Origin: an uncultured bacterium
Lineage (GTDB): Bacteria; Acidobacteriota; Thermoanaerobaculia; Thermoanaerobaculales; Sulfomarinibacteraceae
Assembly (NCBI GenBank): GCA_965533305.1
Contig: CBESWV010000002.1
Coordinates: forward strand, 1-52,204
Direction: 5' to 3'
DNA: 52,204 nt
Shown here: positions 13,047-31,828 of the stretch, one piece after another
How the letters are laid out: every line of letters starts with the position of its first letter
How positions within the stretch are numbered: position 1 is the first letter of the stretch
Made by a program: the position numbers and the translations under genes
Notes under the pieces: model-generated
Database searches by the model: none
What the model saw: the letters and a program-made list of their open reading frames with translations, nothing else
What the model was told of the DNA's origin: nothing

Positions 13047-14366
13047 TTATGTCTTCAACTGCTGCGCGAAGTCCCTCGCCTCTGACTCGATCCGTTCCTG
13101 ATCCATGGTGTTGAGGTGTCGGTTTCCAACCACGAGCTTGCCGTGGACCAACACGTGCCGGACATCGGAGGATCGGGCGGCATAGACGAGGTGCGACCAG
13201 GGATCGAAGACCGGTGTGGCGTGCGGTCCATCGACCGAAAAACACACCAAGTCGGCGATTTTGCCTTCGGTCAGAGTGCCGATCTCGGTTTCGAGCCCCA
13301 GGACTCCGGCCCCACCGATGGTCGCCATCTCGATCATCGAACGGGCGGGCAGGACCGTTGGATCTCCGAACACGCCCTTGTGCAGGAGCGAGGCCAGCTG
13401 GGTGTCACGCAGGAGGTCCAGGGTGTTGTTGGACGCCGCACCGTCGGTGCCGAGACCGACCTTGACCCCTGCCTCGACCATGGCGGGAATCGGGGCCACG
13501 CCCGAGGCGAGCTTGAGATTGGAGACCGGGTTGTGGGCGACGCCGACTTCGAATTCGACCAGGGTCTCGATGTCTTCCGGTGAGACGTGGACACAGTGGG
13601 CGGCGACGGTTCGCTCGGAGAGCACACCGAGATCGGCGAGGTAGGCGACGGGAGATCGTCCCTTCTCTTCCATGAGCTTTTCCACTTCCCATCGCGACTC
13701 GGAGAGGTGGATCTGGAGAGTGGTTCCGAGCTCCTCGGCGAGTTCGGCCTCCTTGACCAGGTTGGCCGCGCTCACCGTGTAGGGTGCGTGGGCGGCGACG
13801 GAGGGTGTGATCAGCGGGTGGTCCCGGTACTCCTGGGCCAGCTCCCGCTGTTTTTCCATCATCTCTTCGGGGGTCTTGCAGCGAGGGGTGGCGAAATCGA
13901 TGAGCGACTCGGCAATCACCCCGCGCATCCCGGCCTCGGCGAGCACCGCGGCGACCTCGTTGCCGAAGAAGTACATGTCGGTGGTGGTCGTGACGCCGGC
14001 GAGAAGTTGTTCGGCAACCGCGAGTTCGGTGCCGAGTCGAACGGCCTCGCGGTTCATGTGGGTCTTCTCCGCGGGCCAGATGTGGTTTTCCAGCCAATCC
14101 ATCAGCGGGAGGTCATCGGCAAGACCGCGGAGCAGGGTCATGGCGAGGTGGCAGTGGGTGTTGACCAGACCCGGCAGGATGAGGCATCCGCCGGCGTTGA
14201 CCACCTCGCCGGTGGGCGCGTGCTCGAGCAGGTCCTCGGCGAGGCCGACGGCGGCGATCCGGCCGTCGGCGATCGCGATGGCGCCGTCGGGGATGGGTTC
14301 GCTCCCGGGCTCCATGGTGAGAATGGTTCCGCCGACAACGAGAGTGTCCCAATTTGATGTGTCCAT
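13047..14366 (-). CDS. mtaD: Amidohydrolase of the MtaD / SAH-MTA deaminase type
   Basis: PGLVNTHCHLAMTLLRGLADDLPLMDWL and the downstream HxH/Asp metal ligands are typical of the chlorohydrolase/deaminase family. ATG 14366 is preceded by SD GGAGGA. The ORF-track GTG at 14384 is less likely. Confidence 0.8.
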   Translation of the reverse strand: MDTSNWDTLVVGGTILTMEPGSEPIPDGAIAIADGRIAAVGLAEDLLEHAPTGEVVNAGGCLILPGLVNTHCHLAMTLLRGLADDLPLMDWLENHIWPAEKTHMNREAVRLGTELAVAEQLLAGVTTTTDMYFFGNEVAAVLAEAGMRGVIAESLIDFATPRCKTPEEMMEKQRELAQEYRDHPLITPSVAAHAPYTVSAANLVKEAELAEELGTTLQIHLSESRWEVEKLMEEKGRSPVAYLADLGVLSERTVAAHCVHVSPEDIETLVEFEVGVAHNPVSNLKLASGVAPIPAMVEAGVKVGLGTDGAASNNTLDLLRDTQLASLLHKGVFGDPTVLPARSMIEMATIGGAGVLGLETEIGTLTEGKIADLVCFSVDGPHATPVFDPWSHLVYAARSSDVRHVLVHGKLVVGNRHLNTMDQERIESEARDFAQQLKT

Positions 14367-14368
14367 GC

Positions 14369-14409
14369 AATCCTCCAGACCCACACCCGAGGTGCGAGTC
14401 TGGAGGATT
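14369..14409 (-). promoter_or_regulatory. SD-sequestering hairpin in front of the mtaD-like gene
   Basis: Perfect 12-bp stem aatcctccagac / gtctggaggatt with a 17-nt loop. On the minus-strand mRNA the 3' arm contains the GGAGGA SD, 4 nt before the ATG. No U-tract follows. Confidence 0.5.
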
Positions 14410-14439
14410 GTAGCTAATCGGGATTCGGGGGACGACTCC

Positions 14440-14844
14440 TCAGAACTCCTCGCCCTCTTTCAGCCGGCGAAGTCGGCGGCGTTCCTGCTTCTTGGGCGCA
14501 CCCATGCCGCGATCGCGGAGCGGCGGCATGGAAAGACGTTGCATTCTTCTGAGTTCGATCTCTTCTGGAGTCGGCGGCGGAGTGTGATCGATATAGAGCT
14601 CGCGGGCCCGGGCTTTGGAGACATTGGTGGATTCGATTCCCACGACCTCGATGGTTCGCTTCCGACCGCCGGGAAGGGAGATCTTGATCTCGTCCCCCGG
14701 ACGGACCGCTCGATGAGCCTTGCCGTTGTCTCCGTTGACTTCAACACGGCCATTCTTGCAGGCCGTCTGGGCCTGTGATCTGGTCTTGAAGATGCAGGCC
14801 ACATCGAGCCAGATGTCCAGACGGAGGGAAGCATTGTCGGCCAC
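14440..14844 (-). CDS. S4-domain RNA-binding protein, Hsp15/HslR-like
   Basis: LRLDIWLDVACIFKTRSQAQTACKNGRVEVNG resembles the Hsp15 S4 domain, and the C-terminus is basic. I prefer the GTG start at 14844, which gives a length similar to E. coli HslR. The ORF track extends to TTG 14940. Confidence 0.7.
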   Translation of the reverse strand: MADNASLRLDIWLDVACIFKTRSQAQTACKNGRVEVNGDNGKAHRAVRPGDEIKISLPGGRKRTIEVVGIESTNVSKARARELYIDHTPPPTPEEIELRRMQRLSMPPLRDRGMGAPKKQERRRLRRLKEGEEF

Positions 14845-15212
14845 GGTGCGAGTGTAGCGCGAGAGGATGAGAGTTGGGAGAGCAAGAACCCGCACGAATC
14901 GAGGGTGGATTTCACGATTGAAGGATGTTTGATTGAGCAACCTTCAAATTCGGTGATCCGCATCACACAGCAAACGAGGATTGGATGTGGGAGGCTCTGC
15001 GGAGATGGACTGGTCGGTCGGGAGCTGGTCGTGCGCCGCGGTTCCCGGCACGACTGGTTCAGAATCGAGGATTGACGACCCCGGTGTTCGACTCAGGGTT
15101 TTCGGAAACCGGAGTACGATCTACAATGGACGCCAATAACCGCCACGAGGAACTATGGCCGTGGAATCGTCTTGGATTGGATTCGCGACCAAATCCGGCT
15201 GCTGGAGAATTG

Positions 15213-16964
15213 ATGGGAACACACCACCGGTCCCCCCACAGGTTTGGGCTCTACCTGATCATTGCGATGGCCCTGTCCATGGTTACAGGGAACGGCTCGG
15301 CGGCGGACCATCCGACCCTGGTGAATCCGGAAACGACCACCTGCGTCACCTGCCACGACGAGGTGCTTGCGGTGCGGGTTCCGCATCCGCCGGCGGCCGA
15401 TGACTGCCTGACCTGCCACGTGTTTGAAGCCAGCGAAGGCGAAACGAGCGTGGGATTGATGGAGTCAGGATCTGCGCTGTGTCTGGCCTGCCACGATGGG
15501 CTTGCGGCGGCCGCGACCGGTGAGATCGCGGTCCCGCACGCTCCTGTGGTCGATGACTGTGGGACCTGCCACGGTGCTCATGGCACGGACTTCGATGCCA
15601 TGCTCGTGGTGGAGCCGGCACTCATCTGTGCCGAGTGTCACGATTTAGACGACACCGACGCCGCCCACCCACTACCCGTGCGGCGTGCCGACTGCCGGAC
15701 CTGCCACGAGGCTCACGGTTCGAAGAACGCCCACATGCTGCGTGGATCTTCACGACACGTGCCCTTTGAGGAAGGTTCGTGCGACGCATGTCACCGCACA
15801 CCGCGCGGGACACGTGTGCGTCTCCTCCAAGAGGGCGGGGCTCTCTGTGAGGCGTGCCATGGCGATATCGCGAATGACGGCGATGCGGTGGTCCATACCG
15901 CGATCAAGCAGGGCCGGTGTGTGGAGTGCCACGACCCCCATCTTGCGGATCGCCCCCACCTTCTGAAGGCCGACGGCGGCGAACTCTGCTTTTCGTGCCA
16001 CCCCGACATCGCCGAGCGGGCGAAGGGCCCCGGTGCTCACGCTGCGCTGGAGGATGGTTGCGACGGCTGTCACGACGCACATTCCAGTGATCGGCCCGCG
16101 ATGCTGCTCGACGACGTGGACGAACTCTGTGGCACCTGCCACGATTCGGCGGACCCCGATCTTCGCCGACTGCACTTCGGGGCGGATATGACGACGATCC
16201 GCTGCCTCGGCTGCCACGATCCCCACGGATCATCGAGCATGCCTCTCATCGCCAACGGATCGATCCATCCGCCGTTCCGCGAGGGCTGCAGCAATTGTCA
16301 CGGCGCTACGGCGCAGGAGCTTGAGGGCGGCGGTGGCAATGCTCTGTGCGAGATGTGCCACGACGACGTGGCGGAGACCATCGCGACGGCTGCCGTGCCC
16401 CACCCCGCCATGGAGGCGATGGAGTGCGTGGACTGCCATTCTCCCCATGCATCCCGCCAGCCGAAGCTTCTGCGGGCAGCCGGAGGCGAATTGTGCCTCG
16501 ACTGCCACGAAGACCAGGCGGGAGGCGAGGGTGAGAGCGTTCACCGGGCGATCTCGTGGATCGGATGCCACAGCTGTCACCTACCCCACGGGGGTCCGAG
16601 TGAGAACCTCCTGCGGGCGTCAGGGAACGACCTGTGCAACGGGTGTCACCTGAAGAACCGGGTGAAGGTGGACCGGAACGGCGATGTCAGGCTTGACGGC
16701 GGATTCGTCCTGCGGGGTGAACGGGCTCGGGAACTCGAGATGATCGGCCTCGATCCCTTCCTTCGCAAGAACCACCCGATCCCCGAGCACCCGGTTACCG
16801 GGATGATCGATGGCAAGGGCCGGACGGAAGTGGCGAAGTCGCTTGTGGGTCAAGAGATGACCTGCCGGCTCTGTCATGAACCCCATGCAGCGGCGAGCTC
16901 GAAGTTGTTTGCCTGGAAAGCGACAAACCAGGCTGAGCTGTGCATCGCATGCCACCCCAAATGA
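15213..16964 (+). CDS. Multihaem c-type cytochrome, 21 CxxCH motifs, modular
   Basis: ATG 15213 after SD GGAGA gives the signal peptide MGTHHRSPHRFGLYLIIAMALSMVTGNGSAA. I counted 21 CxxCH motifs. The unit LCxxCH...H.....CxxCH.(A/P)H repeats throughout. Confidence 0.9.
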   Translation: MGTHHRSPHRFGLYLIIAMALSMVTGNGSAADHPTLVNPETTTCVTCHDEVLAVRVPHPPAADDCLTCHVFEASEGETSVGLMESGSALCLACHDGLAAAATGEIAVPHAPVVDDCGTCHGAHGTDFDAMLVVEPALICAECHDLDDTDAAHPLPVRRADCRTCHEAHGSKNAHMLRGSSRHVPFEEGSCDACHRTPRGTRVRLLQEGGALCEACHGDIANDGDAVVHTAIKQGRCVECHDPHLADRPHLLKADGGELCFSCHPDIAERAKGPGAHAALEDGCDGCHDAHSSDRPAMLLDDVDELCGTCHDSADPDLRRLHFGADMTTIRCLGCHDPHGSSSMPLIANGSIHPPFREGCSNCHGATAQELEGGGGNALCEMCHDDVAETIATAAVPHPAMEAMECVDCHSPHASRQPKLLRAAGGELCLDCHEDQAGGEGESVHRAISWIGCHSCHLPHGGPSENLLRASGNDLCNGCHLKNRVKVDRNGDVRLDGGFVLRGERARELEMIGLDPFLRKNHPIPEHPVTGMIDGKGRTEVAKSLVGQEMTCRLCHEPHAAASSKLFAWKATNQAELCIACHPK

Positions 16965-16984
16965 ATGAGAGCGAGAACTGACTG

Positions 16985-18034
16985 ATGGGCCATCGAGCAA
17001 AGTACTTCCTTTTTCCAGTGTTCGCGGCGCTTCTCTGGTCGTGTAGCTCAGGTGGAGCGAGTTCGGGCAAGCGAGCCGCCTCTGAGCCGACGAGGGTCGT
17101 CTATCCTCCGGCTCCGGCCGATCCGGTTGTCGAGTGGGTCGGTGTGATCGGCACCCGGGCCGATGTCGACAACCGGAAACGAACCTTGAGGAAGGTCCTC
17201 GTCGGCGAAGAGGAAATCGAGGCGTCGCTGATGGCTCCGACGGCGGTGGCCATCGGCCCTGACCAGACTCTCTATGTGGTCGATCAGCATCTCCGGGGAG
17301 TGGTGATTATCAACCGGGATGAACAGCGTTTCGAACTCTTCCGGGGGACGGCCCCGGGTTCGCTCTTCCAGCCCGTCGGCGTCGCGGTGGCCGATGACGG
17401 CACTCTGTATGTCAGTGATGCGAGCTCTCAGGCCGTCTATGCCTATGACGCGGAACTCGGGTTCAAGAGGGCCTATGGCGGAGCTGGAATCTTCGATCGG
17501 CCGACCTCCATCGCATTGACGGCGGGTGGTGATCGGATTGCAGTGTGCGACACCGAACGCCATGTGGTAAACGTGATGGAAACCGCAACGGGATTGCCGG
17601 TGATGACCCTGGGAGGCAATGAGAACAGCGCCCGCGACGGCGAGTTTAACTTCCCGGTCGCGGCCGCCTTCGACGCCGAGGGTTACCTCTATGTCTCCGA
17701 CTACCTGAACTTCCGGATTCAGGTCTTCGATCCCGCCGGTGATCTTGATCTAATTTTCGGGAGCGCCGGAGACAGCCCCGGGAACTTGAATCGGCCCCGT
17801 GGATTGGTGGCCGACGCCGCCAACGGCGTGTTGTATGAGGTGGATGGAGCGTTTCAGCTCGTTCAGATGTTTAACCTCGATGGTGAGTTGCTCATGTGGT
17901 TCGGAGAGCCCGGTCAGGGGCCGGGCCAATTCTCTCTTCCTTCAGGTATAGCCATGCGTGACAAGCTTCTGGTCGTCGCGGATACGCTCAACCACCGTAT
18001 TCAACTCTTTCGGTTCCTTGGTTCACCGCAGTGA
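16985..18034 (+). CDS. NHL-repeat beta-propeller lipoprotein (paralog 1)
   Basis: Lipobox FAALLWSC. There are six NHL-like blades (LYVVDQHLRGVVII, LYVSDASSQAVYAYD, IAVCDTERHVVNVM, LYVSDYLNFRIQVFD, LYEVDGAFQLVQMFN, LLVVADTLNHRIQLF). Confidence 0.85.
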   Translation: MGHRAKYFLFPVFAALLWSCSSGGASSGKRAASEPTRVVYPPAPADPVVEWVGVIGTRADVDNRKRTLRKVLVGEEEIEASLMAPTAVAIGPDQTLYVVDQHLRGVVIINRDEQRFELFRGTAPGSLFQPVGVAVADDGTLYVSDASSQAVYAYDAELGFKRAYGGAGIFDRPTSIALTAGGDRIAVCDTERHVVNVMETATGLPVMTLGGNENSARDGEFNFPVAAAFDAEGYLYVSDYLNFRIQVFDPAGDLDLIFGSAGDSPGNLNRPRGLVADAANGVLYEVDGAFQLVQMFNLDGELLMWFGEPGQGPGQFSLPSGIAMRDKLLVVADTLNHRIQLFRFLGSPQ

Positions 18035-18225
18035 TCTGCCCGCCGGAGTTTGTTTGCGCGGTCGGATTTCGATTCGGCGTTCAACAAAGATTTGGAGGCA
18101 TTATCGGCCGCGAGCGGAGATCTCGTTGTTGCGACAGTGTCTTTATTTGAAGACTCCATGACCCGGCCATGACAAAAAACCCTGCCATTTATGTGCGCTT
18201 CGTCACGTGTTCATTAACTCAAGCA

Positions 18226-18254
18226 TTGATTTGGGAATAAATACCGAATATGCT
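18226..18254 (+). promoter_or_regulatory. Candidate sigma-70 promoter TTGATT-N17-TATGCT inside the cytochrome locus
   Basis: It lies in the AT-richer 340-bp gap between 18034 and 18374, about 120 nt upstream of the tetrahaem gene start. Confidence 0.35.
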
Positions 18255-18373
18255 CCAGCCTGTCGATGGGATTCGACTGAACCTGCGGGCCGTTCGCAAT
18301 CAAACGCGGAGGGCTCACGCCGGCAGCGAGGTTCGAATCGAATTTCACCGGACTCGAGAACGGAGGGCAAAAA

Positions 18374-18988
18374 ATGATGAAGAGAGCGCTTGTGATGAGC
18401 TTTTGCGTGGTCCTGGTGGCGGGAATCGCCAGTGCCCAGATTACCGGCAGCGCACACGACTTCAGTAGCGAGACGTGGTCGAACGGCACCATCTGCCTGC
18501 CGTGCCACACGACCCACGATGGTGAGACCTCCTTTGTCGCGCCGCTGTGGAACCACGAAGTGACCGTGGCCAGCTTTCAGATGTACACCAGCGGCACCCT
18601 CGATGGGGAGGTCGATACGCAGCCGGCCGATGTCTCCAAAGCGTGCCTGTCCTGTCATGACGGCACCGTCGCGCTCGAGAACTTTGGTGGGAACACAACC
18701 GGATCGACCTATATCGACGGTGGCGCCCTGGTCGGAACCGATCTGTCGAACGATCACCCGATCAGCGTGACCTACAGCGCAGGAACGGGTGCGGGTCAGG
18801 ATCCCGAGCTCAACCCGACATCGGCGACCTATGCCGATGGGACCATTGCAGACTATCTCTTCGCCAACAAGGTGGAGTGCGCCACCTGCCACGACGTCCA
18901 CAACGGTGGGGCCGTCGGGGGTAACCCGTCCCTGTTGGTGGAGGATCCGGGTGGCAGCCTGATGTGCATTCGTTGCCACGCGAAGTAG
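18374..18988 (+). CDS. Secreted tetrahaem c-type cytochrome (paralog A)
   Basis: SD GGAGGG, then the signal peptide MMKRALVMSFCVVLVAGIASA. The four haem motifs are CLPCH, CLSCH, CATCH and CIRCH. The signature is CxxCHTTH...APLWNH...CLSCHDGT.AL...DHP.S...CxxCHD.H...C..CHAK. Confidence 0.9.
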   Translation: MMKRALVMSFCVVLVAGIASAQITGSAHDFSSETWSNGTICLPCHTTHDGETSFVAPLWNHEVTVASFQMYTSGTLDGEVDTQPADVSKACLSCHDGTVALENFGGNTTGSTYIDGGALVGTDLSNDHPISVTYSAGTGAGQDPELNPTSATYADGTIADYLFANKVECATCHDVHNGGAVGGNPSLLVEDPGGSLMCIRCHAK

Positions 18989-19001
18989 TCTGATCCCGCT
19001 G

Positions 19002-20081
19002 ATGATGCAAGCTCGCGGCACGGGGGGCGATCGTCTCGCCTCCCGTGTCTTTTTTTGGGTGGTTTCTCCTGGTCGGAGGAACACCGCAATCGGCAGACGA
19101 TTGCTGAATGCGGTCGTCATCTTTGCGGCAACGGTACAGCTTGTCGCCCCGATTGCCCAATCGGCCTCGGTGGTCGATTCGGTGGCGATCGTCAATGGCC
19201 GGCAACTCGAGGCGTGGGAACTCGATCGTGAACTGGCGGTGCGGATTTCGGTTGGAAGCTACCATCGGCAGATCTCCCAGGAGAAGAAGACCGAATTCAG
19301 GTGCGAGTCTCTCAAAGCTCTGGTGCTCAAAGAACTCAAGCGGCAGTGGGCGGGGGAGAACCCCGTCGATGTCGATGAAGCAGCAGAAGAGGCGGCCTGG
19401 CAGGAAGTGCGGGCGCGCTTCACCAGCGAGGGGCAATACCGCTCCGCTCTCGAGACCAAGGGAATCGTCGAGGACGCCTTCCGACTGGCCCTCCGTCGAG
19501 ATGCCGTCGCCGAGGCGGTTGACGAGTCGATCGTTTCCAGCGTCACGTCTCCAAGCGAGACTGAGGTTGAGGTCTTCTTCATCCTCAACAGCGATGACTA
19601 TGTGAACCCGGAAGCCCGGCACGTGACTCACATCCTGGTCCACGTTCCACCGTCCGCGACCGTGGAAACCTGGCAGGCGTCCGAGCAACACGCACGTCAG
19701 CTTGCCGAGGAAGCCCGTCGGGAAAGCCTCCCGCTTCTCGTGGTGGGTGAGTCCGATCTCGAGAGCCTCCCTCCTCGGTTTCGCGATGAGGTCGGCGATA
19801 TCGGCTTTGTCCACCGTGGATCGCTGTTGCCCGCCGTCGATGAGGCGGTCTTCTCGGCGGAGGTTGGAGAGGTGATCGAGCCGGTGAAATCGATCTACGG
19901 TTATCATGTGTTGCAAGTGATCAGCACACGTCAATCAAAACCGATCGAACTCGCTGCCGTGCGGGCTGCAGTGGAGGAGCGAATTACGCGGGAGAAGAGA
20001 CAGCATCGGCTCGACGAATTCGAGTTTCAGTTGTTTGACCTTGCGACGATCGAGGTTCTCGAATGCGTCGAGAGATTCTGA
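19002..20081 (+). CDS. Parvulin-type peptidyl-prolyl isomerase (SurA/PpiD/PrsA-like), N-terminal anchor
   Basis: A SurA-like N-terminal chaperone region is followed by the parvulin core ARHVTHILVHV...GDIGFVHRGSLLPAVDEAVFSAEVGEVIEPVKSIYGYHVLQV. Confidence 0.8.
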   Translation: MMQARGTGGDRLASRVFFWVVSPGRRNTAIGRRLLNAVVIFAATVQLVAPIAQSASVVDSVAIVNGRQLEAWELDRELAVRISVGSYHRQISQEKKTEFRCESLKALVLKELKRQWAGENPVDVDEAAEEAAWQEVRARFTSEGQYRSALETKGIVEDAFRLALRRDAVAEAVDESIVSSVTSPSETEVEVFFILNSDDYVNPEARHVTHILVHVPPSATVETWQASEQHARQLAEEARRESLPLLVVGESDLESLPPRFRDEVGDIGFVHRGSLLPAVDEAVFSAEVGEVIEPVKSIYGYHVLQVISTRQSKPIELAAVRAAVEERITREKRQHRLDEFEFQLFDLATIEVLECVERF

Positions 20082-21823
20082 ACCTCGTAGCTCGCCGGCT
20101 CTGCGCTGGGGTCTGTCTGTGGTGCTTTGCCGGGTCCGCCTGGGCCTCGAGCGGGGCGACCTTCACGCTGGGCCTCTCGGCGGAGTACCTGAGCGACTCG
20201 CAGGAATACGCCGGCGTTTCCACCAAGCGATCGAATCTCCAAACCGTCCTCTGGGCGGCCGTTGTCGGTCACCTCGTCGATCCGAGATTCATGACCTTTG
20301 ATGCCAGTGTTGCAAAGACTCTGTCGAATCAGACGATTTCCGGCCAACAGGACAATGAGGTCGACGACACCTACTACGACGGGTCGCTGCGGTTCTTCAA
20401 CAACCGTGCGATTTCGTTCGAAGTCGGTGCGGGCCGTCAGGGAACCGACGTCACCGGTCTCCAACAGGGGGCGATCGTCGATGGGGTGCGCAGCTATCAG
20501 CGGTACGGCCTGCGAGCCCTCGGCGGCCAGTGGTTCCGTCTCAATCTTCGGCACTGGGAGCAGAGCTTCGCCGCGGACCAGCCGGACACGCTGCGTGATG
20601 AGGACTCCGCCTGGAGCGAGCTGTCGACCCAGGCGGCCGTCGGCAAAGTCGATGCCATGCTGCAGCTTCTGTGGAAGGAGAACAATCTCTTCGGGGATGG
20701 TCTTCAGCAGGAGATCGGATCCGGACGGTTCGACCTCGACATCAACCGGACCGGGCGGGTCTACTGGCACACCGACCTCATTGGAAATGTCTACCGTTCC
20801 GCCCAGAATCACGAAGAGTTCTCGCCGTGGACGACGAATTACCTGTTCAGAAACCAGTTGCGCCACCGATACAGTCAACACGGATTCTGGGATCTCAGGG
20901 CGGATATGCGGGTAGTCCGCGTCGACACCGAGCCGGTTGAGGAGGTCATCACCGGAAACGCCTCGGCCAACCTCGTGGCACCGCTGAGCCCGTCGACCTT
21001 TCTCGAGGCCGAACTCGGCTATCTCAGCAACGAGTACGGTGACGGCCTGCGGCTGACCCAGCCCCGGGCGGGCCTCGGGCTGAGGTGGGGTCAGCAGTTC
21101 GGCCGCTGGTGGGTGTCGTTCTACCCCCGGGTGACCTATCTCAGAGCCGACCCGGAGGAACTCGAGCAGGAGTCGGCCTTCGGCTCGCTGATCTTCGGGT
21201 CCGTTCGCTACCAACTTCCCCGTTCGAGTGTGACCTTGGAGGGCGAATACTTCGACAACCAACTCTCGATCCCGGACTACAGCGTCGGCGAACCCCCCAT
21301 CGGGAGCGCGTTTCTCGCAGGTCTCGACCGGCGGCGCTACCGCGGACGGGTGATCTTCGAGTATCGGCCCACCCGCCGAGCCGCGTTCTCGCTCGACTTT
21401 GACTATCGCAACCGGGTGCGGGTGGATCGTGGGTTCGAGATCGAGGAAGATGTAGCCCGCGCCCAGCTCAACATGGCGCTTGGACGGGTGACCATCGGAG
21501 CCTCCGCCGACCGGTTCGAGATGGTCGGAAGCGAGATCCCGACCTTGACCGATGTGTGGCAGGCGAACATCAGCTGGGGTCCGACGTACTGGTTGCTCTT
21601 CGACGGGTTCGTACGCTCCGAGGAGCGCAGGATCTTCGATCATATTGGCACGTACGAGTTCGCAGAGCTCGGAGTGCGATTCAACTACGCCAAGCTTTCA
21701 TTCTATGCTCGGGTGCGAGAGCAGCGAACCGAGGAGGCGGGACTCGAACAGCGCCGATTTCGACGGATTTGGGTCGGTGTGAGGCGTTTGTTCAACATCA
21801 GAGCCGGAGACAACCGAAGATGA
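20063..21823 (+). CDS. Putative outer-membrane beta-barrel protein (porin-like component of the cytochrome locus)
   Basis: Signal peptide MRREILNLVARRLCAGVCLWCFAGSAWA. The 586-aa sequence is rich in alternating hydrophobic/polar stretches and aromatic girdle residues (VSFYPRVTYLRA, LIFGSVRYQL, VTLEGEYFDN, AFSLDFDYRNR). It overlaps both neighbours (19 nt upstream, ATGA downstream). Confidence 0.6.
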   Translation: MRREILNLVARRLCAGVCLWCFAGSAWASSGATFTLGLSAEYLSDSQEYAGVSTKRSNLQTVLWAAVVGHLVDPRFMTFDASVAKTLSNQTISGQQDNEVDDTYYDGSLRFFNNRAISFEVGAGRQGTDVTGLQQGAIVDGVRSYQRYGLRALGGQWFRLNLRHWEQSFAADQPDTLRDEDSAWSELSTQAAVGKVDAMLQLLWKENNLFGDGLQQEIGSGRFDLDINRTGRVYWHTDLIGNVYRSAQNHEEFSPWTTNYLFRNQLRHRYSQHGFWDLRADMRVVRVDTEPVEEVITGNASANLVAPLSPSTFLEAELGYLSNEYGDGLRLTQPRAGLGLRWGQQFGRWWVSFYPRVTYLRADPEELEQESAFGSLIFGSVRYQLPRSSVTLEGEYFDNQLSIPDYSVGEPPIGSAFLAGLDRRRYRGRVIFEYRPTRRAAFSLDFDYRNRVRVDRGFEIEEDVARAQLNMALGRVTIGASADRFEMVGSEIPTLTDVWQANISWGPTYWLLFDGFVRSEERRIFDHIGTYEFAELGVRFNYAKLSFYARVREQRTEEAGLEQRRFRRIWVGVRRLFNIRAGDNRR

Positions 21824-22827
21824 GGACGCAACGATTCGCACTCGTAATTCTCCTAGCAGCGGGTTGCCTGCCGTCGCGGGCGATCTGTGCCGAGGGCCCG
21901 GTCTGGCCGCCCCCCGGAGCTGAGGCTCCGGCCGAGGTTGCCTGGCAGGCCATCGTCGAGGAGTTCCGCCCCAAGGGCCTGGGACGATTCTTCCGCGCGG
22001 TGGCAGGCGCAGAGCGACATCAGCAGGCGTGGACTCTGCCGCGGCCCGTCGCCGTGGCTCTCGCCAAAGACCGGGTCTTCGTGGTGGACACGGCCATGAG
22101 CTGGGTGATCGGCGGCAAGACCGATGGAAGCTCCGCGGTCAAGCTGAAGCTGCCTGACGGTGTGCAACCGGTCGCTATCGCCTCGACCCCGGATGGGAAT
22201 CGGATCCTGGTCGCGGATCGGGAACTCGGAGTCGTCTTCGCTTTCGACCTCAAAGGCTCGCTGCTCGGCGAAGTCGTGGGTCGAGATTTGGTGCAGCGTT
22301 GTGGTGGGATCGCCGCGTGTGCGAATGGCGATGTGTTGATCACCGATGCTGAGGCCGGTCAGGTCGTTCGTGTCTCCACCGATGGACTCGAGGTGGCCAG
22401 GTCGGGCGGGCGTGGAACCGGCGATGGAGAGTTCAACACTCCGACCGCTGTTGCCGAAGCACCGGACGGCACGGTTTGGGTCCTCGATCCCTTCAATTTC
22501 CGGGTCCAGCAGCTCGACGCCGAACTTCAATACCTGTCTCAGTTCGGCCAGCACGGGGATGGGTCCGGGCATTTTGCCCTTGCCAAGGGGCTGGCGATTG
22601 ATCCCGACGGCCATATCTATGTGTCCGACGCACGCTTTGATGCAGTTCAGGTCTTTGACGGGGAGGGGCAGCTTCTCCTGATCATCGGTGGTCGTGGTTT
22701 CTCAGCGGGCGAATTCTGGACACCCGGAGGTCTCGCCATCGATCGACGCGGTCATCTGGCCGTGGCGGATACCGGGAATCGACGGATCCAACTCATGCGC
22801 TACCAGCGAAGGGAAAACCAGAAATGA
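21820..22827 (+). CDS. NHL-repeat beta-propeller lipoprotein (paralog 2)
   Basis: ATG 21820 overlaps the upstream stop (ATGA). The start is MRTQRFALVILLAAGC, with a lipobox. NHL blades include GEFNTPTAVAEAPDGTVWVLDPFNFRVQQLD, IYVSDARFDAVQVFD and LAVADTGNRRIQLMRY. Confidence 0.85.
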   Translation: MRTQRFALVILLAAGCLPSRAICAEGPVWPPPGAEAPAEVAWQAIVEEFRPKGLGRFFRAVAGAERHQQAWTLPRPVAVALAKDRVFVVDTAMSWVIGGKTDGSSAVKLKLPDGVQPVAIASTPDGNRILVADRELGVVFAFDLKGSLLGEVVGRDLVQRCGGIAACANGDVLITDAEAGQVVRVSTDGLEVARSGGRGTGDGEFNTPTAVAEAPDGTVWVLDPFNFRVQQLDAELQYLSQFGQHGDGSGHFALAKGLAIDPDGHIYVSDARFDAVQVFDGEGQLLLIIGGRGFSAGEFWTPGGLAIDRRGHLAVADTGNRRIQLMRYQRRENQK

Positions 22828-23477
22828 GACGCGCGGCAATCACCCTGACGATGGTATTGGGTTTGGCTGTTCTGGCCTGGTCCCAGGAAAGCATACGCGA
22901 CACCCCTCACAATCTTTCCGTGACCGGTCCGGGCACCGTCAGGGCGGTGTCCGAAACCAGGGTGTGTGTCTTCTGTCACACGACCCACAACGCCGCCTTC
23001 CATGCGCCGTTGTGGAATCGGGAGAACCCGGGAGGCAGCTACCAGATGTACTGGAGCGAGACCATGGACGCCTATGGATCCTCGGGGGAGGCGCCGCAGC
23101 CCAATGGTTCGTCGAAACTCTGCCTTTCCTGCCACGACGGAACCATTGCACTCGGATCGACGGTTTCGTCGGGTCGTATCGAGATGCGTGGAGGAATCAC
23201 GACCATGCCGTCGACCTCGGAATCAAATCTCGGCCGAGACCTCAGCGGTGATCACCCGGTCTCCTTCACGGTGACGGACCACCTGGTCACGACCAACAAT
23301 TCCAAGGGCGATGTCCCTCTGAGATCGTTGTCGGAGATGCGGAACCACCCCCTCGCGAAGCTCGACAAGGAGAATCGCATCCAGTGCACGACCTGCCACG
23401 ATCCCCATCGCGACCCTTATGGAAATTTCCTTCTCACCGCAAAACCGGGGGAGCTATGCATCGCGTGTCATTCCTGA
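22824..23477 (+). CDS. Secreted tetrahaem c-type cytochrome (paralog B)
   Basis: ATGA overlap with the upstream gene. Signal peptide MRRAAITLTMVLGLAVLAWS. Haem motifs are CVFCH, CLSCH, CTTCH and CIACH. It shares the signature of 18374-18988 (CHTTH, APLWNRE, CLSCHDGTIAL, DHPVS). Confidence 0.9.
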   Translation: MRRAAITLTMVLGLAVLAWSQESIRDTPHNLSVTGPGTVRAVSETRVCVFCHTTHNAAFHAPLWNRENPGGSYQMYWSETMDAYGSSGEAPQPNGSSKLCLSCHDGTIALGSTVSSGRIEMRGGITTMPSTSESNLGRDLSGDHPVSFTVTDHLVTTNNSKGDVPLRSLSEMRNHPLAKLDKENRIQCTTCHDPHRDPYGNFLLTAKPGELCIACHS

Positions 23478-24586
23478 GGACTGCTGCGGCGGCGATTGTC
23501 CTGATCGCCCCGGTGGCCTCGGCCGTTGATCTCGGCAAGCACTTCGAGCCGGGCAAGCTCGCCGAAGACTGTACACCGTGCCATCAGGGTCACGGGGCCG
23601 CCCGAACACCCATGTTGACGACCGAGAGCGACCTCATGTGCATTGAGTGCCACCAGACGGGCGCAGCTGAGCCCGGCCGGCGTGAAGCACTTGGAATGGA
23701 CTCCGGCGCCGATCCGGCGGACATCCGTGTGGAAATGGTCAAACCGGTGATCCACCGCGGGGCGCGTTGTATAGACTGCCACAGTGTTCATGGCATCGGC
23801 CGGCTTCAGGGGGCGCCTGGGGCCAACCTCAATCTCGGACGGCAGAAGCCTTCGCCGAAACGGGGCTTCGCCAGCGAGGCGAATCTCTGCCTTTCGTGTC
23901 ACGGAACCCGGTCGACAATGGTCTCGGATCCTCATGACATCGGTCTGCTCTTTGATTCGAGGAATCCCTCGTTCCACCCGGTCCTCGCCATCGGTGTCGG
24001 CGAGGTCCCAAGCCTCTTGCCTCCATTGACACCTGATTCCCTCATCAACTGTTCTGATTGCCACACAAACGATGATGTCCGTGGTGCGCGTGGACCGCAC
24101 GGGAGCCGAGTGCCGGGGCTGCTCGGCGCCGACTACTCATTGCAGGATGGGCAGCCGGAATCGGAGGCCGGATACGCTCTGTGCTATCAGTGCCACGATC
24201 GGAAAATCGTCCTCGATTCCGATCCCTTCCCATACCACCGACTGCACGTTGTGGACCAACGAACCGCGTGCGTCCTGTGCCACGATGCGCACGGTGCGAC
24301 CGCTGGGCGGGCCCTCATTCGCTTCAACGAACCCACGGCGATCACCGGCGTTCTGGCCTCGAGTTCTGGGCGGCTCGAATACAGTTCTGAGGCGGCGGGG
24401 ATGGGGGGCTGCTATCTCACCTGCCACGGCGTTGATCACGACCCCCTCGGTTATGGGCCCATGTTCACAACCAAAGGCCGCCCCAGGTTTGTCGATCCCA
24501 ATCGTGATGGGGCCCTGGGTCGGCATCCGGCCGGCACCCAGGCGGCGCCGCGAGCGGGCACCAGATCCGACGGCAGGAAACAGTGA
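23456..24586 (+). CDS. Octahaem-type c cytochrome (7 CxxCH + 1 CxxxCH)
   Basis: ATG 23456 follows GGGGGA. Signal peptide MHRVSFLRTAAAAIVLIAPVASA. The motifs are CTPCH, CIECH, CIDCH, CLSCH, CSDCH, CYQCH and CVLCH, plus CYLTCH at 24410-24427. Confidence 0.9.
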   Translation: MHRVSFLRTAAAAIVLIAPVASAVDLGKHFEPGKLAEDCTPCHQGHGAARTPMLTTESDLMCIECHQTGAAEPGRREALGMDSGADPADIRVEMVKPVIHRGARCIDCHSVHGIGRLQGAPGANLNLGRQKPSPKRGFASEANLCLSCHGTRSTMVSDPHDIGLLFDSRNPSFHPVLAIGVGEVPSLLPPLTPDSLINCSDCHTNDDVRGARGPHGSRVPGLLGADYSLQDGQPESEAGYALCYQCHDRKIVLDSDPFPYHRLHVVDQRTACVLCHDAHGATAGRALIRFNEPTAITGVLASSSGRLEYSSEAAGMGGCYLTCHGVDHDPLGYGPMFTTKGRPRFVDPNRDGALGRHPAGTQAAPRAGTRSDGRKQ

Positions 24587-24819
24587 GGCTTCAAAACACC
24601 ACCCTCGCTGATACGGTCCTGTCCGCGAGTTCGAGTGGGTCCGTGATCCAAGGCACTGAAAGTGGATGGCCTCTTTCGCGACAATCAATAATCGGAACGG
24701 TTCCCGTTAAAGAGTGTGATTCGGTTTCGAGAAAGGAAAACGGAGTGAGACGCCCACCAACGAAGGATGGCGACCCGAGGGGCGCGAGCGCACGCTGGAA
24801 TGGCTCCGCGCGGTCAGGG

Positions 24820-25833
24820 ATGACCGCCCGAGTGACAGTGCTCATTGCTGTCGGCGTGATCATCCTCGGACTGCCGGGAACGACGTCCGCACAGCTGTGT
24901 AACTGGGACGGCACACCGATGCTGCCGCCACCTGAAGTCGATGCTCTGGGCACACAGCTGGAGATCCTGCGGGCCCCGGCCCGTCTGGCGGTCGACTCCG
25001 CCGACAACGTCTACGTCACCGATCCGACCCGGGGAACGATCGTGGTCATGGATGTCTACGGAGACGTCATCGAAATGCGCAGTGGATTGGGGGCTCCCCT
25101 GACCGTCGCGGTGGACGCCTTTGACAACATCTACGTGGGCGATGACGCGACAGGACGGATCGACATCTTCGATTCTCTGTGGCAGCACGCTGGCGTCCTC
25201 GGTAGCGGTGCGGGGGAGTTCATGGCCGCAACCGATATCGCCATCGATCCGGATCCAGGTTTTGGTTTTGTCTTCGTCTCCGATGGTGAGGCGAACCTGA
25301 TCAAGGTCTACGGTCCCGATGGCCAGATGGTCCGATCATTCGGAGGCTCTGGAACTGGTCCGGGAGAGTTCGATTTTCCGTCAGCCGTTTGGGTGAGTCC
25401 GTACGGTGAGGTCTATGTCGGAGACCAGAACAATGATCGTGTCCAGGTTTTCGATCGTGACGGTGCTTTTCTTCGCTGCTTCGGGGCTCAGGGCGGGGGA
25501 AACCGAAACTTCGGCCGGATCCAGGGTCTGACAGGGGACCTCGATGGCAGAATCTATGTCGCCGATGCGTTCCAGAGCCATGTCAAGGTCCTCGACGGCG
25601 CCGGTGCGGATCTCGGGACCATCGGCAGCCTGGGAGATCGTTCCGGTCAGTTCCGGACCCCCTTCGGCGTGGTGATAGATAGCACCAACCGGCTGTTCGT
25701 GTCATCAGTGAACAGCGGTCGGCTCGAGGTCTTTGGGTTGGACGACTACGGAGTCGTTCCTCCCTCCGGCCTGATCTTCAACGACGGATTTGAATCTGGA
25801 GATGTTCATGCCTGGTCTGAAGCTGTTCCGTAG
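24820..25833 (+). CDS. NHL-repeat beta-propeller protein (paralog 3), secreted
   Basis: MTARVTVLIAVGVIILGLPGTTSA is a signal peptide. Six NHL blades are present (VYVTDPTRGTIVVMD, IYVGDDATGRIDIFD, VFVSDGEANLIKVYG, VYVGDQNNDRVQVFD, IYVADAFQSHVKVLD, LFVSSVNSGRLEVFG). An alternative GTG start is at 24745. Confidence 0.8.
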   Translation: MTARVTVLIAVGVIILGLPGTTSAQLCNWDGTPMLPPPEVDALGTQLEILRAPARLAVDSADNVYVTDPTRGTIVVMDVYGDVIEMRSGLGAPLTVAVDAFDNIYVGDDATGRIDIFDSLWQHAGVLGSGAGEFMAATDIAIDPDPGFGFVFVSDGEANLIKVYGPDGQMVRSFGGSGTGPGEFDFPSAVWVSPYGEVYVGDQNNDRVQVFDRDGAFLRCFGAQGGGNRNFGRIQGLTGDLDGRIYVADAFQSHVKVLDGAGADLGTIGSLGDRSGQFRTPFGVVIDSTNRLFVSSVNSGRLEVFGLDDYGVVPPSGLIFNDGFESGDVHAWSEAVP

Positions 25834-27958
25834 ACCGCCGAAGGGGATTCTCGTGCGGGGAATTCTGCTGTCGATGGCTTTGCTGCTTGTCGTCCCAGGC
25901 GCCGATGCGCTGGATCCGCCGCACGACGCCTCGTGGGCCATAGACTGCTCGAGTTGTCACACGACTCACAGTGCGTCCGGCGGTGGACTCACGACCGTGG
26001 GAGGCAACGGCAATCTGTGTCTGAGCTGTCACGTCTTCGGCGGTCTCGCCGCGGGGCTTCCTTTCGTCGATGCCGATCAGGCGTTGCCGGGCCCCGGTCT
26101 GCCTTCGGGTACCAGCCCGTCGGGAAATTCTCACCGATGGGACGCCGGCGCCGCCGGCCACGTCAAGCCCGATGGCGGCAACACGTCGGTGGGCGAGGTC
26201 GCTCCGGGCGGCCTATTCGTTGGGAAATTTCCAAAGACCTACACGGTGACAATGACCTCTTCCGGGGATGTCGGTGCGGCCGTCTTCTCGTGGAACGACA
26301 CCCTGGCGGGCGGAGGCGCCGGATTGACCACCGGCGCCGATGTGCTCCTCGACGAGGGTGTCATGGTGACGTTCACCAACGCCGAGGCTTCGCCGTCTTT
26401 CGTGGCTGGGGACGTGTGGCGGATCTATGTTCGGGCCGATTTGAGGCATCCGCAAACGGCGGCCATGTCGAGCCGTCTCGAGGACGGCCGAGCCATGTGT
26501 TCGACCTGCCACGACCAGCACAAGCAGGCGAGAGAGCCCTTCGATGCCACGGCGCCGCCATACGGTGGAGCTGGGACCGGTGAAGGACGCCACTTCATGC
26601 GGATCGACGACGACGAGGGCGCCAGCTGCAACGACTGCCACGGATTCAGGGATGTGACGGTCTCCATTGATGGATCGCACCCGGTTGGCCGAAGTGTTCC
26701 CGGCTCGGGAGGCTACCAGCAGCCTACGACGCTGCCGCTGGATCCCATGAACTGGATGGTGTGCATGACCTGTCACCAGGTCCATGACGCACCCACGAGC
26801 GATGGGTCGCTGCTGCGCAGAGTGGATCGAACGGGTCTGTGCACCGAGTGTCACACTCTCGCCGACACCGCGACCCCCGCAGCCCATCTCGACCCGGCCT
26901 CCACCGGGGCACTCTGGCCCGGCGGACAATATGGATCGACCTTCCCGGCCATCACGGACGTATCCCAGACCGCGAGCTGTTCCGGTTGCCATCAGGCGCA
27001 CGGCTGGCCCGACACCAACGATGTCGATCGGGATTACCCCCGGCTCCAGATCGATCTCGAAGAAGACCTGTGTTTCACATGCCACGATGGGAGCCCGGCG
27101 AATGCCGACGTGCGGACCGACTTCCTCAAGAACTCGGCACACCCGTTGGATCTGGCATCCGAGGTTCACCAGCCGGGCGAGCCCGCCGTCGTGACCACCC
27201 GTCACGTCGAGTGCGAAGACTGCCATGGTCCGCATGACGCAGTGGCGAGAGTCAACCTTCCCGGCGCCACCACCTCGCCTCGACCGGCTTCGGGGCCGCT
27301 CGAAGGTGTTTCCGGCGTCAACCTGGCCGGCAACGAGGTGAGTCCCGCATCCTATGAGTACCAGCTCTGTCTTCGTTGTCACGCCGACAGCCCCAATCTG
27401 CCGTCGCCGTCCACGCCGCGCCAATTCCCCGAATCCAACCTCCGACTCGAATTCAACGGCTCGCTGGCGTCCTATCACCCGGTCGCGATGGAAGGAACGA
27501 ACTCCAGCGTGCCGAGTTTGACCACCGGGTGGGACGAAACCAGCCTGATGAGCTGCACCACATGCCACAACAACGACGACGGCCCGGTGACCGGCGGTTC
27601 GGGCGCCAACGGCCCGCACGGCTCGGACTGGCCGCATCTGCTCGAGCGTCGCTATGAGACCACGGACCCCCAACAGTTCAACCAGCAAAAATACGCCATG
27701 TGCTTCAAGTGCCACTCATGGCAGAACCTGGCTGGCGGCAACAGCTTCGACGACCACTCCAAACACGTCTCCGGCGAGCAGACGCCATGCAACGTCTGCC
27801 ACGACCCGCACGCTTCGGCTAACCCCAAACTCATCAACTTCGACACCTCGGTGGTGACGCCCTTCAACGGCACCCTCGAGTTCGTGTCATCGGGGACCCA
27901 CCAGGGTGAGTGCACGTTGACCTGTCACGGCGAGGAACACGACCCCTATACCTATTGA
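25808..27958 (+). CDS. Large multihaem c-type cytochrome (13 CxxCH + 1 CxxxCH)
   Basis: GGAG lies 6 nt before ATG 25808. The signal peptide ends ..LLLVVPGADA. There are 13 CxxCH motifs plus CTLTCH at 27911-27928. The N-terminus resembles the tetrahaem paralogs (CSSCHTTH, CLSCH). The C-terminal 136 aa are homologous to the end of the 23456-24586 protein. Confidence 0.9.
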   Translation: MPGLKLFRRPPKGILVRGILLSMALLLVVPGADALDPPHDASWAIDCSSCHTTHSASGGGLTTVGGNGNLCLSCHVFGGLAAGLPFVDADQALPGPGLPSGTSPSGNSHRWDAGAAGHVKPDGGNTSVGEVAPGGLFVGKFPKTYTVTMTSSGDVGAAVFSWNDTLAGGGAGLTTGADVLLDEGVMVTFTNAEASPSFVAGDVWRIYVRADLRHPQTAAMSSRLEDGRAMCSTCHDQHKQAREPFDATAPPYGGAGTGEGRHFMRIDDDEGASCNDCHGFRDVTVSIDGSHPVGRSVPGSGGYQQPTTLPLDPMNWMVCMTCHQVHDAPTSDGSLLRRVDRTGLCTECHTLADTATPAAHLDPASTGALWPGGQYGSTFPAITDVSQTASCSGCHQAHGWPDTNDVDRDYPRLQIDLEEDLCFTCHDGSPANADVRTDFLKNSAHPLDLASEVHQPGEPAVVTTRHVECEDCHGPHDAVARVNLPGATTSPRPASGPLEGVSGVNLAGNEVSPASYEYQLCLRCHADSPNLPSPSTPRQFPESNLRLEFNGSLASYHPVAMEGTNSSVPSLTTGWDETSLMSCTTCHNNDDGPVTGGSGANGPHGSDWPHLLERRYETTDPQQFNQQKYAMCFKCHSWQNLAGGNSFDDHSKHVSGEQTPCNVCHDPHASANPKLINFDTSVVTPFNGTLEFVSSGTHQGECTLTCHGEEHDPYTY

Positions 27959-28215: not shown

Positions 28216-28995
28216 TTACTCTTCAGCAACGATCTCAGCATCCTTGAGCATGACCGCATAGGTATAGCCGGCGCCAAAATCCTGATTGGTGACCAGGGTG
28301 CCGGTGGCGGTCACAATGTCCCCGACAGAGGCGGTGCCGAGCGTGGTGACGGTGAGATCGTGCGATCCTTCAGCCGCCGAACCCGTGCCATCCTGGAGAT
28401 GGATCCAGTTCGTGCCCAGAATTCCGCCGTTGTACTTGACCACTCGTCCGCGGACGGTGATCGAGGTGTCAGCGAGTTTGGCGGTTTCGGACCAGATCTG
28501 CCCCACCGTCACACCGCCATCGGCAGGCTCGACCGGTTCCGTCGCCTGGCTGGACGCATCATGGGCGGAGACGGTTTCTCCGGCCACGGCTGGGTGACCC
28601 GCGGGCATGGAGGGCGAGGCTGTTTCGCCTTTGCGCATGATCTGCGAGGTGAAATAGACCACTGGGAAGGTACGGTCCAGGCTCTCACTGTGAAAATCCT
28701 GCATCGGCATTTCCAGGGGAACAACGACAACCTCGCCCACGGCCACGTCGAATCGTGTGGCCGCGGCCCAGATTTCTTCGCCTCCCGTATCGACGCGAAC
28801 ATAGGTGTAGTTCCCGGCGTTCATGGTCTCCACGACCGTGCCGGTCGCGGTGGCGCCGGCGGGGGCCATGCTCTGGGCCGCCTCGATATCGGTCTGGTTC
28901 TGGGAATTCTCGTCCTCGGGCTGTTCGGCGGTACACGCACCGACGACGCCGAGCGAGGCGGCCATCAATAGCGACATGGTGATTCGATAGGTCAT
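28216..28995 (-). CDS. Lipoprotein with OB-fold-like (tRNA_anti-type) repeats
   Basis: Lipobox SLGVVGAC. One module is GTVVETMNAGNYTYVRVDTGGEEIWAA. The second is ITVRGRVVKYNGGILGTNWIHLQDGTG...VGDIVTATGTLVTNQDFGAGYTYAVMLKDAEI. The fold assignment is from memory of similar annotated proteins. Confidence 0.65.
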   Translation of the reverse strand: MTYRITMSLLMAASLGVVGACTAEQPEDENSQNQTDIEAAQSMAPAGATATGTVVETMNAGNYTYVRVDTGGEEIWAAATRFDVAVGEVVVVPLEMPMQDFHSESLDRTFPVVYFTSQIMRKGETASPSMPAGHPAVAGETVSAHDASSQATEPVEPADGGVTVGQIWSETAKLADTSITVRGRVVKYNGGILGTNWIHLQDGTGSAAEGSHDLTVTTLGTASVGDIVTATGTLVTNQDFGAGYTYAVMLKDAEIVAEE

Positions 28996-30417: not shown

Positions 30418-30528
30418 CGAAACCTCCTCACACGTAGGGTCGAGATTCTAACAGAGTGAGACGCAATCCGGCCGGTTTCGTGTACCCTGTCGGGGCCGGC
30501 TCGATGGTCGGCTCGTCATTGCGAACTT

Positions 30529-30711
30529 GGAGTGTGTAGTGAATAGATGGCGGATGGATTTCGGTGAGTCGTTTGAGGCCATTTTGGGGCGAATTCGCAG
30601 GCTCATACTGGTGGTATGGGTCAAGGATTCACCATGAAATGGGCCAAACGACACCCGAAAGGCGCCGCCGATTCTATGCACTACACACTCCTTGGCCCAA
30701 GGAGTCCCGCC
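30529..30711 (+). promoter_or_regulatory. Conserved ~180-nt leader element, copy B (upstream of the DegT-type aminotransferase operon)
   Basis: Homologous to 11971-12148. The identical blocks lie at 30546-30564 and 30660-30675, again 114 nt apart. A long-range helix pairs 30559-30580 with 30642-30660. The element ends at SD AAGGAG and ATG 30712. Confidence 0.55.
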
Positions 30712-31821: not shown

Positions 31822-31828
31822 TCGATTC

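Follow-up and report, generated by a model that had tools for sequence, protein, structure and literature searches.

Two tetrahaem cytochromes assigned to the OmcE family in a gene cluster of an uncultured marine-sediment member of the Acidobacteriota

Are the two small secreted cytochromes encoded in a multihaem gene cluster of an uncultured bacterium subunits of a cytochrome filament, and would both of them play the same part in it? The question was raised by a stretch of 52,204 nt (the window; contig CBESWV010000002.1 of assembly GCA_965533305.1, affiliated to the family Sulfomarinibacteraceae within the Acidobacteriota). Ten co-directional genes (15213-27958) encode there, in this order, the 21-haem cytochrome mhc659, the beta-propeller protein NHL1, the tetrahaem cytochrome OmcE-A (A), a peptidyl-prolyl isomerase (PPIase), a 586-aa barrel, NHL2, the tetrahaem cytochrome OmcE-B (B), mhc400, NHL3 and the cytochrome mhc722. 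An earlier note on this DNA had taken A and B for possible filament subunits with a sequence flavour of OmcS and OmcE. The analysis described here indicates that both are almost certainly members of the OmcE family, and that the locus is very probably an omcE-type electron-transfer cluster. The features of the cluster are shown in Table 1.

A (204 aa) and B (217 aa) are on the forward strand at the positions given for them earlier, and the features attributed to the two proteins were confirmed. Each has a Sec-type signal peptide (...AGIASA/QITG in A and ...LAWS/QESI in B) and four CxxCH motifs (C41, C91, C169 and C198 in A; C48, C100, C188 and C212 in B). All of the shared motifs previously quoted, including CxxCHTTH, APLWN(H/R)E, CLSCHDGT(V/I)AL, DHP(I/V)S and CxxCHD(V/P)H, were found, in A and B respectively, as CLPCHTTHD and CVFCHTTHN, APLWNHE and APLWNRE, CLSCHDGTVAL and CLSCHDGTIAL, DHPIS and DHPVS, and CATCHDVH and CTTCHDPH; the C-termini are CIRCHAK and CIACHS. 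Aligned end to end, the two proteins share 36% identity (BLASTP E 2e-29), and their paralogy is therefore real rather than due to chance. They were the only OmcE homologs in the whole assembly (4.3 Mb, 493 contigs), and more than 7,700 homologs of A were obtained at E ≤ 1e-5.

Comparison with solved structures was carried out by phmmer against all PDB chains (matches listed to E ≤ 10) and with a profile of 54 A-type sequences (E ≤ 1). The sole significant matches of A and B were two OmcE filaments, 7TFS from Geobacter sulfurreducens (GsOmcE) and 9YUQ, the OmcE bundle of Desulfuromonas soudanensis WTL (DsOmcE); the former was reportedly described by Wang et al. in 2022 (Nat Microbiol). OmcE filaments contain an insulated linear haem chain in which stacked and T-shaped pairs alternate. 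B matched 7TFS at E 2.1e-30 (residues 6-216 against 9-230) and 9YUQ at E 9.2e-20, A matched 9YUQ at E 4.9e-19 and 7TFS at E 1.1e-15, and the A-family profile gave 1e-39 and 4e-37 for 7TFS and 9YUQ. All these single-sequence alignments cover the full length and include the non-haem motifs PLWN, SCHDG and LSNDHP. A and B share with GsOmcE the size (about 200-230 aa), the Sec signal, the ligand register, these motifs and the end of the chain after haem 4, but the identity is just 31-36%, and A and B belong to other clades. DsOmcE is likewise homologous over the full length and lies outside the A and B clades; as here, its cluster is minimal, without a large glycosylation block, and its habitat saline, according to Petersen et al. 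2026 (PMC13712944, throughout this work its text apart from Figure 4D), where the bundling loops of DsOmcE are given as not conserved across the family.

The OmcS-like flavour was not borne out by these searches. Neither A nor B matched OmcS in the single-sequence PDB searches at E ≤ 10, and in the profile search OmcS (6EF8) reached no better than E 0.032, in an alignment of 15 residues at a single CxxCH. On these grounds, and with four haems in A and B against six in OmcS, a relationship with OmcS was rejected. What is shared with this hexahaem protein is the CxxCHxxH start motif and the concept of inter-subunit His ligation (PMC9473688), without significant similarity.

A joint alignment of the two proteins with GsOmcE and DsOmcE brings the four CxxCH motifs and four distal His (H28, H48, H128 and H176 in the numbering of A) into register, and all eight haem-ligand positions are invariant in 54 A-clade sequences. 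The same eight positions form the conserved core of the OmcE family in Petersen et al. The four chains also stop one or two residues past the last CxxCH. In OmcE and OmcS filaments a His of one subunit ligates a haem of the next (PMC9473688; PMC12954529), and this inter-subunit ligand is kept in A and B whichever of the four distal His it is, since all four are conserved. Mature A contains exactly nine His, all of them invariant in the 54 A-clade sequences, the ninth being H61 (PLWNH).

The surroundings of A and B were compared with published omcE clusters. In the minimal cluster as defined by Petersen et al., OmcE is accompanied by two multihaem cytochromes, two beta-propeller lipoproteins and a large barrel, and a barrel and a propeller lipoprotein nearby serve there as the criterion for a nanowire-capable OmcE homolog. 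The window conforms to this definition, with the lipoboxes of NHL1 and NHL2, a barrel modelled with 28 strands, multihaem cytochromes and OmcE. The locus of G. sulfurreducens has the order cyt370, cyt330, NHL, omcE, a 752-aa protein without Pfam match (presumed to be the barrel) and glycosyltransferases, and is mirrored by the window order mhc659, NHL1, A, (PPIase) and barrel; like A, omcE is located between an NHL lipoprotein gene and a barrel-sized gene, with cytochromes and a large non-coding gap upstream. NHL1 is the best match in the window to the G. sulfurreducens NHL gene beside omcE (31% over 325 aa, E 1.7e-46), NHL2 and NHL3 matched the Geobacter NHL protein at 6.6e-39 and 1.3e-32, and mhc659 matched cyt370 and cyt330 of the Geobacter cluster at 2e-24 and 7e-17. 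Unlike the window, the Geobacter cluster holds a single OmcE gene and lacks a B-type fusion, no PPIase was called within 10 kb of omcE, and a long glycosyltransferase block follows, in place of which the window has the sugar genes described below.

Table 1. Features of the multihaem gene cluster in the window, in order of position.
Feature	Positions	Strand	Characteristics
mhc659, 21-haem cytochrome	15213..16964	+	21 CxxCH; open reading frame opens at 14985, probable start ATG 15213; signal peptide
NHL1, six-blade NHL beta-propeller lipoprotein	16985..18034	+	Lipobox LLWSC; Pfam NHL E 7e-23
Leader, non-coding, 339 nt	18035..18373	+	Largest intergenic gap of the cluster; ends in Shine-Dalgarno GGAGGG
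OmcE-A, secreted tetrahaem cytochrome assigned to the OmcE family, A clade	18374..18988	+	204 aa; PDB matches, tree
Intrinsic terminator or attenuator, directly past the A stop	19017..19056	+	14-bp stem (10 G-C), 5-nt loop, T7
Parvulin/SurA-like PPIase	19059..20081	+	Pfam Rotamase 2.9e-12, SurA_N_3 3.4e-5; open reading frame opens at 19002
Large outer-membrane beta-barrel	20063..21823	+	586 aa, signal peptide; AlphaFold2 model with 28 strands, mean pLDDT (predicted local distance difference test) 77.6
NHL2, NHL beta-propeller lipoprotein	21820..22827	+	Lipobox LLAAGC; Pfam NHL 4.8e-22
OmcE-B, secreted tetrahaem cytochrome assigned to the OmcE family, B clade	22824..23477	+	217 aa; PDB matches, tree
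mhc400	23456..24586	+	7 CxxCH and one CxxxCH; own signal peptide; start and Shine-Dalgarno
NHL3, third NHL beta-propeller	24820..25833	+	Signal-peptidase-I type signal; Pfam NHL 8e-12
mhc722, 14-haem cytochrome	25808..27958	+	13 CxxCH and one CxxxCH

The relationship between A and B was assessed in a tree of 142 OmcE domains, with support from the Shimodaira-Hasegawa-like approximate likelihood ratio test (SH-aLRT). Three supported clades were recovered, a Geobacter-type clade with 7TFS (97), the A clade (99) and the B clade (95), and DsOmcE was placed outside all three. The deepest supported split (97) has GsOmcE on one side and DsOmcE, with A and B, on the other; GsOmcE and DsOmcE are both proven to form filaments, which makes polymerisation the parsimonious ancestral state. 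A and B represent two old OmcE subfamilies that are paired in single clusters in at least eight phyla. Both types were present in every compared non-acidobacterial locus with sequence on both sides, and, besides Acidobacteriota, loci with both belong to Planctomycetota, Binatota, a Myxococcota-labelled metagenome-assembled genome (MAG), Zixibacteria, Bacteroidota and Nitrospirota; the Sumerlaeota locus (L009) has an A-type gene only, before the contig end. The recurring gene order in other phyla is A, NHL, small cytochrome, barrel-sized open reading frame, NHL and B. Most loci holding a B-type gene have an NHL gene immediately before it, and NHL1-type genes flank A-type genes elsewhere. Clusters of other phyla contain one to three A-type genes, and some of these encode a protein with a fifth haem.

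Individual loci show further variation. A Nitrospirota MAG (L016:1690-4528) has three tandem A-type genes, one of them with a fifth CxxCH, and a small response-regulator gene between them, and in a Flavobacteriaceae MAG A-type genes flank the cluster on both sides (L017:8111-8734 and 14280-15089), again one copy with a fifth CxxCH. These five-CxxCH copies resemble the "5-haem OmcE-like" proteins in the text of Petersen et al. In a Zoogloeaceae MAG (L012:460-1236), a divergent OmcE-like protein on a long branch, beside an NHL gene, lacks the distal His at two of the four positions (CHTPT, DNRP), and it is possibly a non-polymerising offshoot or one with Met or other ligands.

B differs from A in its genetic context. 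Its start codon overlaps the NHL2 stop (ATGA), and its end is overlapped by mhc400 over 22 nt. In most of the other lineages the B-type domain makes up the N-terminal 200 residues of a longer protein (500-750 aa, with 10 or 11 haems), the remainder of which is homologous to mhc400. An exhaustive search of 1.84 billion representatives was carried out, and among the best 150 representatives matching B, 84 had at least 450 aa and an N-terminal B domain, the modal haem count being 11. Fused forms were found in loci L005-L008, L010 and L015-L017, and mhc400 matched the C-terminal parts of the fused open reading frames at 1e-37 to 1e-50. The split between B and mhc400 is kept in four independent acidobacterial MAGs (L001-L004) and in Zixibacteria (L011), and is therefore not an assembly error. 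Judged from these alignments, B is the split-off N-terminal module of a protein that has 11 haems elsewhere. As a domain fused after haem 4 would occupy the position of the next subunit, a B fusion could only be a terminal unit. A and B are probably not equivalent, and only A looks like a free filament building block.

The best 120 relatives of A were, within the length limits of the search, four-haem proteins of about 200 aa, with one exception that has three motifs. The gap upstream of A is conserved in size in L001-L004 (about 345 nt), and that upstream of Geobacter omcE has 577 nt. No sigma-70 or sigma-54 consensus was found upstream of A. In L015 and L016 a sigma-54 activator or response regulator gene is directly upstream of the A-type gene or genes. 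Behind A, the 86-nt segment 18985-19070, which contains the hairpin, has a folding energy of -35.9 kcal/mol (z -3.06), and the hairpin is kept in L001-L004, where paired cells amount to 98.6%, compared with 40-67% in slid controls. The Sumerlaeota locus L009 has an independent hairpin after its A-type gene. In the window the hairpin lies within the first part of the PPIase open reading frame as called automatically, from ATG 19002, so that GTG 19059 or TTG 19101 is the more probable start of the PPIase. The layout of A, with a leader, a terminator and multiple copies in other phyla, suggests that of a gene for an abundant structural subunit.

Ten Pfam Paired_CXXCH_1 domains were detected in mhc659 (E 1e-90), which also scored 197.5 bits with the NCBIfam DmsE/MtrA-type decahaem model TIGR03508 (cut-off 192.2) and is a candidate periplasmic electron feeder. 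The PPIase was found, among loci L001-L012 (tblastn E ≤ 1e-5), only in the acidobacterial L001-L004. The barrel had no Pfam or NCBIfam match. Foldseek on its model gave MtrB (6R2Q_B) as the top match (E 7e-8, template modelling score 0.43), then the ushers PapC and FimD, LptD and TonB-dependent transporters. MtrB has 26 strands, against 28 in the barrel model. The barrel belongs to a narrow family: 5.8 billion clusters yielded 26 homologs, of which none is less than 53% identical and one is labelled Candidatus Sulfomarinibacteraceae, and it seems that the barrel evolves much faster than its neighbours or has been replaced. The neighbouring cytochromes, unlike the barrel, belong to families of thousands.

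At the end of the cluster, mhc722 is related to mhc400 (32% over 339 aa, E 2e-41) through its C-terminal part of about 330 aa. Both proteins end in an atypical CxxxCH (CYLTCH at 24410-24427 in mhc400 and CTLTCH at 27911-27928 in mhc722). It had been noted that the 14-haem protein starts with the same arrangement as A and B; it does begin with CSSCHTTH...CLSCH, but this is not an OmcE domain, as the spacing is 24 against about 50 residues and PLWN and DHP are absent. With phmmer fragments of only about 10 bits, mhc722 was rejected as a third OmcE module. The OmcA/MtrC model TIGR03507 gave weak matches only, far under its cut-off of 209 bits.

Directly after the cluster, an open reading frame on the reverse strand (28216-28995) encodes a lipoprotein-like product of 259 aa (signal ...GVVGAC) without Pfam match. 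Just downstream (29092-33004) are genes for a UDP-glucose dehydrogenase (Ugd), a DegT aminotransferase and one GT1/GT4-type glycosyltransferase, and 16 kb away (44196-45644) is a PMT_2 (GT39-like) gene. These sugar genes faintly recall the glycosylation block behind Geobacter omcE.

We gave a probability of about 0.55 to the reading in which A and B, as OmcE members of an omcE-type extracellular electron-transfer cluster, work in the following way. The 21-haem mhc659 would collect periplasmic electrons and feed a base seated in the barrel, and the 28-strand barrel, with the NHL lipoproteins and the parvulin-type PPIase, would hold or export the outer cytochromes. B and mhc400, the split 11-haem protein, would form the barrel-associated base. 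A would be overproduced from its own leader, its transcription being attenuated by the terminator ahead of the assembly genes. In chaperone-usher operons, the major pilin gene is likewise attenuated before the assembly genes. A would then add to the base of B and mhc400 and polymerise head-to-tail, one haem per subunit being completed by a His of the neighbour as in OmcE. The NHL lipoproteins and the PPIase may aid the folding and assembly of these coil-rich, proline-containing cytochromes, a role with a parallel in the osc genes proposed to act in OmcS assembly: OscH in folding, and OscE, OscF and OscG in secretion (Shen et al. 2025, as relayed in PMC13194489). Where the proteins are located, how A and B divide the labour and in which direction electrons flow we can only infer. 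The separate parts of the reading differ in strength. That at least one of A and B polymerises is an even bet or slightly better, whereas the assignment of A to the wire and of B with mhc400 to the base is tentative and held at clearly less than even odds. Still more doubtful is the extension to a widespread two-component wire system, in which the cluster of A and B would have A polymerising on a B/7-haem base seated in the barrel.

Other readings of the same genes were considered. Ordinary periplasmic tetrahaem carriers of the c3/NrfB type, sharing with OmcE only the CxxCH spacing, are suggested by the public name of A- and B-type homologs, which is only "cytochrome c3 family protein", and by Pfam and NCBIfam, which report a generic paired-CxxCH domain and marginal scores of 24-28 bits for Cytochrome_C7 and Cytochrom_c3_2 (cut-offs about 25). 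These last matches cover the C-terminal haem pair only, against full-length alignments with OmcE that include its non-haem motifs, and no c3, c7 or NrfB structure was found among the PDB matches of A or B, whether in the single-sequence searches (E ≤ 10) or in the family-profile search (E ≤ 1), so that this explanation is effectively refuted. The main rival is a porin-cytochrome conduit without filament, in which A, B with mhc400, and mhc722 would be monomers at the outer face or in the periplasm, docked on the barrel or threaded through it in the manner of MtrA and MtrC with MtrB, and electrons would pass out of or into the cell at its surface only. The barrel has its best fold match in MtrB of the Mtr complex, mhc659 exceeds the cut-off of the DmsE/MtrA-type model, and, as in MtrCAB (6R2Q), a long periplasmic multihaem protein with such modules is present. 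B-type domains are usually found in 11-haem single chains, a typical format of conduit cytochromes, and the invariant ninth His of A could complete all haems within one subunit. Furthermore, Deng et al. 2018 (PMC5815863) read clusters of multihaem and NHL-propeller genes in Desulfovibrio ferrophilus IS5 as encoding a complex of the outer membrane. The likeness to MtrB is nevertheless low, with ushers, LptD and TonB-dependent transporters scoring nearly as high, the outer cytochromes of the window are of the OmcE and not of the MtrC/OmcA family, and three NHL propellers and a PPIase are added to them. Filament subunits are the only relatives of A and B with a solved structure, every ligand is kept, including whichever His goes between subunits, and the gene of A has the expression layout of an abundant subunit. 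A conduit without filament was considered unlikely on balance.

Improbable, and more so than the conduit, is the reversal of the two roles, in which B, freed from its 7-haem partner by gene fission, would polymerise here and A would be a nine-His, four-haem anchor or terminator. B is nearer to GsOmcE (2e-30 against 1e-15), and a longer N-terminal segment and PLWNR are common to B, GsOmcE and DsOmcE. An anchor with nine His and four haems, encoded in the cluster, is predicted by Petersen et al., whose candidate, Dsoud_2415, was found only outside the cluster; the nine invariant His of mature A fit this composition, and the reversed assignment is for this reason retained among the readings. A and B also occur together in every locus with enough flanking sequence. 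On the other hand, B is mostly fused to the 7-haem domain where the next subunit would stack, so that B is unlikely to polymerise in general. In the B clade the residue at the place of H61 varies (R 79, H 25 and K 12, n=150), which suggests contact with a propionate rather than axial ligation. The high-output layout of the A gene would be unexpected for an anchor needed once per filament, as would the two or three A-type copies per cluster in some phyla.

Several results weigh against the reading preferred here, in which A forms the filament on a base of B and mhc400. B outscores A against GsOmcE, and the AlphaFold2 model of A, made without haems, has a mean pLDDT of 49 and gave no Foldseek match in the PDB. 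H61 is invariant in A where GsOmcE and DsOmcE have Arg; with this residue A might supply the missing ligand of its own haem and remain a monomer, or act as a cap. Both the A and the B clade are without a characterised member. The window barrel showed no direct similarity to the Geobacter barrel or to those of other phyla by BLAST or phmmer; only a weak profile match was obtained (hhalign 76%, E 2e-5, over the N-terminal 100 columns), and direct sequence homology to these barrels was rejected. Finally, a simple scan detected no terminator after the OmcE-type gene in Geobacter, Phycisphaerales L005 or L008, and the terminator, present in two of the five scanned lineages (Acidobacteriota and Sumerlaeota), was rejected as a general rule.

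With regard to the host, the closest loci belong to uncultured Acidobacteriota MAGs, in which B is 89-96% identical and the entire cluster is syntenic, and the stretch recurs in marine-sediment metagenomes of several studies; the habitat of the host is marine sediment. Syntenic clusters of multihaem-cytochrome and barrel genes have been reported in marine Thermoanaerobaculia MAGs and in Thermoanaerobaculum aquaticum, an Fe/Mn-reducing isolate, and metal-oxide reduction was proposed for them (Flieder et al. 2021, PMC8528874). These clusters and those of strain IS5 have in common the marine sediment, cytochromes accompanied by barrels (Acidobacteriota) or NHL propellers (IS5), and a proposed electron exchange with minerals; an OmcE-type subunit was recognised in neither PMC5815863 nor PMC8528874. 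OmcE nanowires and their gene cluster are already known, and the text of Petersen et al. gives five phyla for OmcE homologs, Acidobacteriota not among them. In the literature compared, which comprised that text and, for Shen et al. 2025, the summary in PMC13194489, no description was found of an acidobacterial marine-sediment host, of the pairing of two subfamilies across phyla or of B as a module separated from an 11-haem protein, and each of these may be new.

Cytochrome nanowires have been solved from a handful of organisms, and how they are started, anchored and terminated is an open problem, for which Petersen et al. call for an anchor encoded in the cluster and report none within it. Outside Geobacter, the cluster regularly holds two OmcE-type modules, and the one normally joined to a 7-haem domain is a candidate for the filament base. 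If true, the two-component reading would supply the "anchor/initiator" missing from current nanowire models, and nanowires would extend to Acidobacteriota, Planctomycetota, Bacteroidota, Nitrospirota, Binatota, Zixibacteria and Sumerlaeota. The combination of an A-type gene, a B fusion, NHL genes and a barrel may serve as a simple genomic marker for predicting long-range electron transfer in many phyla. OmcE-type genes with propeller and barrel partners are now placed in abundant uncultured Acidobacteriota of marine sediments, a group in which metal-oxide respiration was already suspected.

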